The translations under genes were made by a program, and so were the position numbers. From positions 1 to 64,000 of the IMG/VR virus record IMGVR_UViG_3300014204_000140: 64,000 nucleotides of DNA. One strand, written 5' to 3'. Source of the stretch: a virus. Lineage: Duplodnaviria > Caudoviricetes. Positions 11,736-11,867 of this stretch are shown in pieces (position 1 is the first letter of the stretch; each line of letters starts with the position of its first letter). Below the pieces are notes generated by a model that had not been told where the DNA came from, did no database searches, and worked only from the letters and a program-made list of their open reading frames with translations.

Positions 11736-11867
11736 CACTCTGCATTAAGCTATGTTTTTCATCAATTTAGTATACTCATAGATGCACATGAGTTAGCATT
11801 ATTACGGACTTGTGACCGCCATTACTGTTGATACAAATACTCATTTGTATCTTTCATGGTTGCATTA
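11736..11867 (-). ncRNA. Twister ribozyme-like core (P1-type order, enlarged P3/P5, weak or absent P1)
   Basis: Minus strand UAA-UGCA-AC-[P3]-GCGG-UCACAAGU-CCGU-A-[P5]-UGCA-GAGUG. P2 UGCA/UGCA, T1 AC/GU and T2 CAC/GUG all pair as in the twister fold. Confidence 0.75.

Follow-up and report, generated by a model that had tools for sequence, protein, structure and literature searches.

A candidate twister ribozyme lacking the P1 stem in an intergenic region of a crAss-like phage

The 132 nt running from 11867 to 11736 on the minus strand of the window (the whole stretch of DNA analysed, which represents the first 64 kb of a virus record of 95,073 bp with direct terminal repeats and a G+C content of about 28%) are most likely an active natural mini-twister, that is, a ribozyme with the topology of the type-P1 twisters which lacks P1 itself and is predicted to cleave its own backbone between U11867 and A11866; we assign a probability of about 0.72 to this reading. 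Judged from its sequence, the element is a descendant of the twister class and works in the same way, having lost P1 and gained both a P3 arm and a P5 domain, and it probably still splits the transcript of the phage.

The major capsid protein encoded by the record matches the Crassvirus capsid family (E = 1e-192); thus, the phage is crAss-like. Near-identical DNA is present in landfill and groundwater metagenomes, and the sequencing runs listed as containing this phage include no RNA run. The minus strand carries genes from about 13.4 kb down to position 1, and the candidate twister lies on the same strand, within an intergenic gap of 526 nt. Probing PHROGs and Pfam with the neighbouring proteins did not retrieve any match, and for the upstream protein no clear relative emerged from PHROGs, Pfam or homologue searches. 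The homologue searches carried out with the 229-aa, 160-aa and 917-aa proteins retrieved the same phage only, the relatives of the flanking proteins being just a fragment of it, and no match to the intergenic region was found by blastn among 50,697 phage records. The 160-aa protein has a predicted likeness to small outer-membrane beta-barrels (feature score 0.95, TM 0.65-0.70), to be taken as a lead only. The features of the locus are the following:

11979-12659, minus: upstream gene, 226 aa from its ATG
11981-11877, minus: long hairpin, starting at the upstream stop codon and ending 9 nt before U11867
U11867/A11866, minus: predicted scissile bond, the U-A step of the L1 strand UAA (11867-11865), placed by its position relative to P2
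11864-11861, minus: P2 5' strand UGCA, pairing with UGCA 11744-11741
11860-11859, minus: L2 dinucleotide AC, the 5' half of T2, pairing with G11809-U11808
11858-11820, minus: P3 arm, with the base CAU (11858-11856) paired with AUG (11822-11820)
11855-11852 and 11829-11823, minus: conserved P3 internal loop, GAAA opposite AACAGUA
11851-11843 and 11838-11830, minus: distal P3 hairpin of 9 perfect bp, GAUACAAAU with AUUUGUAUC
11819-11804, minus: P4 and L4, GCGG-UCACAAGU-CCGU
11814-11812 and 11809-11808, minus: L4 half of T1 (CAC) and L4 half of T2 (GU)
11803-11745, minus: L2 3' strand and P5 insertion, 59 nt, ending in AA (11746-11745) before P2'
11797-11794 and 11752-11749, minus: P5 base of 4 bp, GCUA with UAGC
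11793-11774, minus: P5 hairpin ACUCAU(G)/(U)AUGAGU
11744-11741, minus: P2 3' strand UGCA
11740-11736, minus: L1 3' strand GAGUG, with GUG (11738-11736) as the L1 half of T1
11735-11453, minus: leader of 283 nt, running to the start codon of the 160-aa gene
10970-11452, minus: downstream gene, 160 aa
10889-10962: tRNA-Lys(UUU), after the 160-aa gene and about 770 nt downstream of the twister

Read 5' to 3', the element has the order UAA-UGCA-AC-(P3)-GCGG-UCACAAGU-CCGU-(P5)-AA-UGCA-GAGUG. In the published naming, T1 is the 3-bp pairing between L4 and L1 and T2 the 2-bp pairing between L2 and L4 (PMC5408937). Here, T1 consists of three Watson-Crick pairs (CAC 11814-11812 with GUG 11738-11736) and T2 of AC 11860-11859 with GU 11809-11808. 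The P2 helix of 4 bp brackets the L2/P4 part and adjoins L1, and the P4/L4 segment GCGG-UCACAAGU-CCGU aligns to cCGG-UCCCAAGC-CCGg of the Rfam type-P1 twister family (RF03160). The cleavage-site adenine and the L1 guanine are both present in the sequence, U11867-A11866-A11865 and G11740-A11739 aligning to UAA and GAG, respectively; G11740 is the candidate catalytic guanine, a role taken from the literature (PMC5408937). The whole GAGUG aligns to GAGGG of the Rfam consensus, and relatives carry GAGUG, GAGUC or GAGUA, complementary to L4 throughout. The predicted site follows from the known cleavage site of the family (PMC5408937); it has the same placing relative to P2 in the Rfam twister-P1 consensus and in all 34 aligned phage twisters, and falls 111 nt past the end of the upstream gene.

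These data agree in the main with an earlier note on this DNA, which had located the twister core on the minus strand, with each element at the position where we found it, and had described a P3 extended by a perfect 9-bp hairpin, present at 11851-11843/11838-11830. It had also called the pseudoknots compensatory and, at the conserved positions, the only differences from the RF03160 consensus are indeed two double compensatory changes, G>A with C>U in T2 and C>A with G>U in T1. The note had termed the AC/GU pairing T1 and the CAC/GUG pairing T2; both pairings exist, and the two labels are swapped with respect to PMC5408937. Likewise, the hairpin ACTCAT/ATGAGT by which it had P5 extended is there, though P5 is not that hairpin alone, since the insertion also includes the 4-bp base and 21 nt predicted to be unpaired.

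The minimum-energy fold computed for the isolated 132 nt without any constraint contains P2, P3, P4 and P5, whereas that computed for 201 nt of context re-pairs P5 and 3' sequences and is missing P2, so that flanking structure could compete with the active fold.

The full descriptor of the element had a single match in the window and none in 100 dinucleotide shuffles of it. Moreover, a covariance model (R1), built from 21 independent phage twisters with the window sequence left out, aligned the element over its full length, both insertions included, with 30.4 bits (E = 1.2e-6), flagging four of its five P1 pairs as non-canonical. Over the 95-kb genome, the element was the only full-length match of R1, and the sole other row (E = 6.5) was a fragment of the same element. 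The training members score 50-73 bits and true members outside the training set, with P3 inserts of 100 nt, 31-36 bits; the 30.4 bits of the element are therefore in the range expected of a member rich in inserts.

The Rfam models gave a different picture. At gathering thresholds, the only match in the window and in the remaining 31 kb of the genome was the tRNA-Lys, with no other ribozyme. In a permissive scan, RF03160 was the best family, with 21.2 bits versus a gathering score of 67.2, which leaves the element below the threshold, and E values of 0.063 (601 nt, all families) and 0.0023 (single family, genome); RF03160 is unable to accommodate the P5 insertion and mis-assigned the 3' strand. 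However, all 11 of the tested type-P1 members of the phage subfamily described below, which do possess P1, likewise score less than 67.2 bits; the low RF03160 score is thus uninformative and reflects the model rather than the RNA. The check by Rfam twister models that had been proposed for this element does not, in substance, refute a twister: the gathering score is missed at 21.2 bits, but the E values are 0.0023 over the genome and about 1e-6 with a subfamily model.

The 14-mer P4/L4 core of the element occurs in more than 113 viral contigs. A script requiring UAA-P2-AC and a complementary P2'-GAGUG around the core recognized full twister features at 43 of the 119 core matches outside this phage (48 of 124 if its duplicate loci are included), corresponding to about 25 distinct type-P1 forms and about 18 permuted ones with a closed P1 hairpin, on viral contigs unrelated to this phage. 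Permuted members pass the Rfam Twister-P5 model (48.8 and 53.1 bits versus 37.6). According to these data, the combination of AC/GU and CAC/GUG pseudoknots defines a populous phage subfamily. The AA dinucleotide preceding P2', which lies outside the selection descriptor, is the same in all 21 aligned members and occurs in the window too. The 59-nt L2/P5 insertion is the longest among the descriptor-selected members, that of one kin phage (G025, see below) being longer. A metagenome scan for insertions of 35-65 nt after P4 retrieved three independent members (L117/L121, L119 and L120), all with P5 stems and with a P1 of 4-7 bp; the P5 stems of L117, L119 and L120 are unrelated in sequence. Among twisters with the canonical core (CCC/GGG), a search for P5 insertions of 35-65 nt gave three viral-contig matches, all of which turned out to be compact forms with a chance second GAGGG downstream. 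A 12-mer common to the P3 of the element and to that of L021 and L032 was set aside, as it also occurs outside a twister in L088.

The arrangement of twisters elsewhere in the subfamily is diverse, from several in one operon to copies placed between tRNAs. In L077 (6112-12240, minus), five twisters lie on one strand over about 6 kb, and the copies differ in T2 (AC/GU or GC/GC) and in the P4 pairs; ribozymes punctuate this operon. The order in L120 (2210-2823) is tRNA-Thr, tRNA-Asp, twister, twister and tRNA-Pro, one of the twisters ending at the base before a tRNA, and in L119 (38-527) two tRNA calls lie upstream of the twister on the same strand. An association between twisters and tRNAs, considered in view of the L119 and L120 arrays and of the tRNA-Lys of this phage, is not general, a tRNA being found at just 6 of 49 loci. 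L088 (2300-2453) harbors a pair of twisters on opposite strands, whose 5' ends overlap by about 15 nt and whose P4 is CAG/CUG in one and CGG/CCG in the other. In L016 (2756-2820), a type II hammerhead ribozyme (43.9 bits versus 37) is located about 3.9 kb from the twister on the same viral contig.

Relatives came to light only in a search with the capsid protein, which retrieved 80 kin loci. Running R1 on the whole kin records revealed long twisters in G001 (capsid 92% identical), G003 (79%) and G025 (68%), and compact ones of 45-62 nt in a group with 63% capsid identity. The G001 locus is syntenic, with upstream and downstream protein homologues 43% and 36% identical, respectively, and an extra ORF preceding the ribozyme. 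Within the ribozyme, the nucleotide likeness between G001 and the element is restricted to the core blocks; a few short motifs match outside the ribozyme as well. The four long forms share UAA-UGCA-AC, the L4 loop and AA-UGCA-GAGUG; the P3 base is YAU/AUG in three of them and CAC/AUG in G025, and, as to P4, G001 has CCG/CGG in place of the CGG/CCG of the other three. Pairing is also retained in the distal P3 hairpins and in the P5 stems, whose sequences are unrelated among the four forms.

To this conservation, a model-fitted alignment of 34 phage twisters (A3) adds covariation. Standard pairs fill 93.1% of the cells, versus 71.7% in shuffles and 21-41% with slid partners, part of this pairedness being there by construction since many rows were chosen by the descriptor; both-sided changes were found at 14 of the 18 pairs. 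P2 is paired in 99.3% of the cells and all four of its pairs covary. The variable first pair of T2 is A-U in 28 sequences and G-C in 6, and the variable pair of T1 is C-G in 30, G-C in 3 and U-A in 1 (CAC/GUG, GAC/GUC and UAC/GUA), with zero unpaired in either case; the middle P4 pair is G-C, C-G, A-U or U-A across relatives. The covariation of the pseudoknots and of P4 is supplied by rows found by the model only (the L077 copies, L088+, the second copy of L120, and L210-L219). Two substitutions seen in contigs of a diverged strain, C11830U and A11844G in the RNA sense, each turn a pair of the 9-bp P3 stem into G.U; they weigh little because they come from one low-depth contig.

As for the missing stem, P1 was reportedly counted in the original description of twister among three 'essential' stems, and is said to be phylogenetically conserved. 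The statement that the flanks of this element form no P1 proved correct: the best duplex between flanks of 14 nt has -0.1 kcal/mol and 0 contiguous P1 pairs, and extending the 5' flank to 43 nt did not reveal any partner within 175 nt of 3' flank, 299 out of 300 shuffled 5' flanks pairing equally well or better. Since the stem is absent, we treat the element as a variant twister rather than a standard one. At 23 of the 26 distinct type-P1 loci of the subfamily, a P1 of at least three contiguous pairs is present at the junction; L067 and L088 have a weak or shifted P1, and the window is the sole locus of the 26 with no P1 potential. Among the kin phages, G001 has none either (-0.3 kcal/mol), G003 and G025 form four of five pairs with one mismatch, and the compact twisters of the 63% group have 6-7 bp. 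P1 is thus absent from both this phage (G000) and G001 with the core intact, so that the loss represents a feature of the G000/G001 lineage; moreover, the intact core of the two argues that the P1-less form is under selection.

That such a form may be active is in agreement with biochemical work on the class. Twisters without P1 cleave off a single nucleoside at almost the wild-type rate (PMC5408937) and, in a massively parallel assay, imperfections in P1 were without effect, the pseudoknots and the catalytic residues being the sensitive parts (PMC11662667); all of these sensitive parts are intact in the element. The earlier note had stated that minimal twisters with a shortened P1 can be active; P1 is dispensable in vitro according to both papers.

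An alternative is that the element is a decayed twister, young or neutral, with an inherited fold that, without P1 and with a bulky P5 that is in part unstructured, cuts too slowly to be of consequence. The presence of P1 (at least three contiguous pairs) at 23 of 26 loci, which implies that the stem is normally selected, would fit this idea, as would the context fold that competes with P2 and the low Rfam score. However, every catalytic and pseudoknot position is intact, and the G000 and G001 cores are identical, with compensatory changes in P4, while the flanking proteins have diverged down to 36-43% identity. Moreover, in a genome with 28% G+C, an unselected G+C-rich core would presumably erode, and P1 is in any case dispensable in vitro. 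We consider such a crippled state improbable, and the active mini-twister remains the preferred reading.

The surroundings of the element are structured on both sides. The hairpin 11981-11877 corresponds to an inverted repeat (I3) with 21-nt arms, 90% complementary and 63 nt apart; its predicted fold has a z-score of -5.3, none of 200 shuffles being as stable. The sequence of its loop is kept behind the homologous gene in G001, from which it follows that the hairpin belongs to the 3' end of the upstream gene. Many subfamily members likewise have a hairpin immediately before their cleavage site, with a mean z of -2.2 across 25 loci, that of the window included. The inverted repeats at 11877-11981 and 12736-12828 both have 15 perfect bp and exactly 63 nt between the arms, have unrelated sequences, and each lies behind a leftward gene.

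Downstream, the 283-nt leader also has a predicted fold more stable than expected (z-score -3.2), and sets this twister apart from most subfamily members, which lie 15-45 nt before the next ORF. The idea that the 3' strand of P1 acts as the Shine-Dalgarno sequence of the next gene was discarded, as it would apply to only about 10 of 28 other subfamily loci and is inapplicable here. The leader contains a 74-nt block (11625-11552, minus) which is 81% identical to G003 and comprises two hairpins with covariation in the stems, AUAUCAUU/AAUGAUAU being replaced by AUACUAAU/AUUAGUAU and UAUAGU/ACUAUA by UGUGGC/GCUACA in G003. The 6-nt loops, CUUAUC (11603-11598) and GAUAAG (11573-11568), are conserved and mutually complementary, which suggests a kissing-loop or pseudoknot RNA. 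After the block comes a conserved GGGAUAGCA. An ORF of 19 codons (11472-11531, minus), located behind a GAGAGG motif, overlaps the RNA conserved in G003 (GGGAUAGCA ... GUUCCCG) and, for this reason, was not counted as a gene; the ORF starting at 11531 is probably RNA structure. Furthermore, a motif around AAACCACUAAU (minus) occurs at 11463-11482 and also at 11402-11414, 13090-13102 and 13228-13239, 10-30 nt ahead of the start codons at 11452 and 13083, and is repeated several times in G001 (L211), the two phages agreeing at 20 of 20 positions; the motif might serve this phage group as a promoter or as a signal for translation start.

Some of these features could point instead to a conditional or assisted ribozyme, in which a protein or RNA bound at the P3 loop or at P5, or a refolding of the flanks, gates the cleavage and times it during infection. 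The asymmetric internal loop of P3, GAAA opposite AAYAGUA, is kept in four kin phages (the L211, L210 and L219 arms and the window) with the surrounding stems changing, and it may resemble a bulged-G (sarcin-ricin/loop E) module. In addition, both flanks are significantly structured (z -5.3 and -3.2), the predicted context fold differs from the isolated one and, in one study, flanking sequence reportedly regulates twister activity co-transcriptionally. The partner, however, is purely hypothetical, the isolated RNA is already predicted to adopt the twister secondary structure, and an engineered mini-twister works with no helper. Gated cleavage thus seems unlikely to us. A broader and tentative scenario, doubtful in our opinion, is that P1 is being lost in one environmental crAss-like clade (gone in G000/G001, mismatched in G003/G025) as the P3 arm and a large P5 were gained, and that peripheral domains or a bound factor might take over the part of P1, making the active fold stable or controlling it. 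Such a natural mini-twister, single-turnover and possibly regulated, would release the upstream mRNA behind a hairpin and leave behind a stable, structured 5'-OH RNA with kissing-loop hairpins. Lastly, a chance resemblance or a non-catalytic RNA mimicking the twister core is hardly credible: it is favoured by the match below the Rfam gathering score, and against it stand the zero descriptor matches in 100 shuffles, the E value of about 1e-6 from the independent model, the covarying pseudoknots, the conservation of the element in kin, and the permuted members of the same variant that pass Twister-P5.

Coming back to an active P1-less twister, the best-supported reading of what was observed in this analysis (sequence and fold features, significance, conservation in kin and covariation) is that the element is an intercistronic processing site, a function that we infer; what we state on the site and chemistry of cleavage and on P1 being dispensable comes from the literature on this twister class. 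We can depict the following scenario. The twister would be transcribed together with the leftward genes, and the RNA would most likely fold co-transcriptionally via P2, P4 and the two pseudoknots and then, again most likely, cut its own backbone between U11867 and A11866. The mRNA of the 226-aa gene would then end in a 2',3'-cyclic phosphate, 9-10 nt past the long hairpin, which would be protective, and the downstream RNA would carry a 5'-OH lying within the compact fold of the ribozyme, whose body would be followed by the 283-nt leader, then by the beta-barrel-like gene and the tRNA-Lys. As there is no P1 to retain it, the 5' product would, in our proposal, leave immediately. Activity in vivo and uncoupled fates of the two transcript halves would be part of the same scenario.

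The ribozyme class and its phage context are already known; a literature search did not retrieve any established role for bacterial or phage twisters, nor any paper on twisters in crAss-like phages. The locus offers a natural twister minus a stem once counted essential, accompanied by kin with a mismatched P1 or none, so that the laboratory finding of P1 dispensability becomes testable on evolved sequences; this natural P1 loss, documented by kin, is worth a specialist's assay. The simple and testable layout of gene, protective hairpin, ribozyme, structured leader, and gene plus tRNA can, in turn, reveal whether neighbouring phage cistrons acquire separate fates through self-cleavage, with no need of host nucleases. 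Finally, the Rfam type-P1 threshold excludes the whole phage subfamily, and the catalogue models miss many phage copies.

Three known systems can be compared with the element. It shares with the type-P1 twister (RF03160, clan CL00120; PMC5408937) the order UAA, P2, L2 dinucleotide, P3, P4/L4, L2 3' strand with P5, P2' and L1 3' strand, as well as the 4-bp P2, the L4 pattern U-NNN-AA-NN, the 3-bp T1 and the 2-bp T2, the conserved A located 3' of the scissile bond, the L1 guanine, and ends that are open at the place of P1. It differs from that family in lacking P1, in having T1 as CAC/GUG and T2 as AC/GU versus the consensus CCC/GGG and GC/GC, in its 59-nt P5 domain and its clade-conserved P3 internal loop, and in its 21.2 bits versus 67.2. 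The type-P5 permuted phage twisters L004 and L011 (RF02684) have the identical L4/P4 core and the same T1/T2 variant and are likewise carried by phage contigs; unlike the element, they are circularly permuted, with a loop closing P1 and the ends after P4, and compact, usually lying directly before a ribosome-binding site and start codon. A laboratory precedent for the missing stem is the engineered P1-less mini-twister, a synthetic truncation of an environmental twister (Kosutic et al. 2015, as reported in PMC5408937 and PMC11662667), which also consists of a core without P1 and, as PMC5408937 relates, cleaves off a single nucleoside at nearly the wild-type rate. The element, in contrast, is natural, has long 5' and 3' flanks and additional P3 and P5 parts, is conserved in at least two diverged phages, and its cleavage is a prediction; it would thus appear to be the natural counterpart of the engineered mini-twister, provided with clade-specific P3 and P5 domains.
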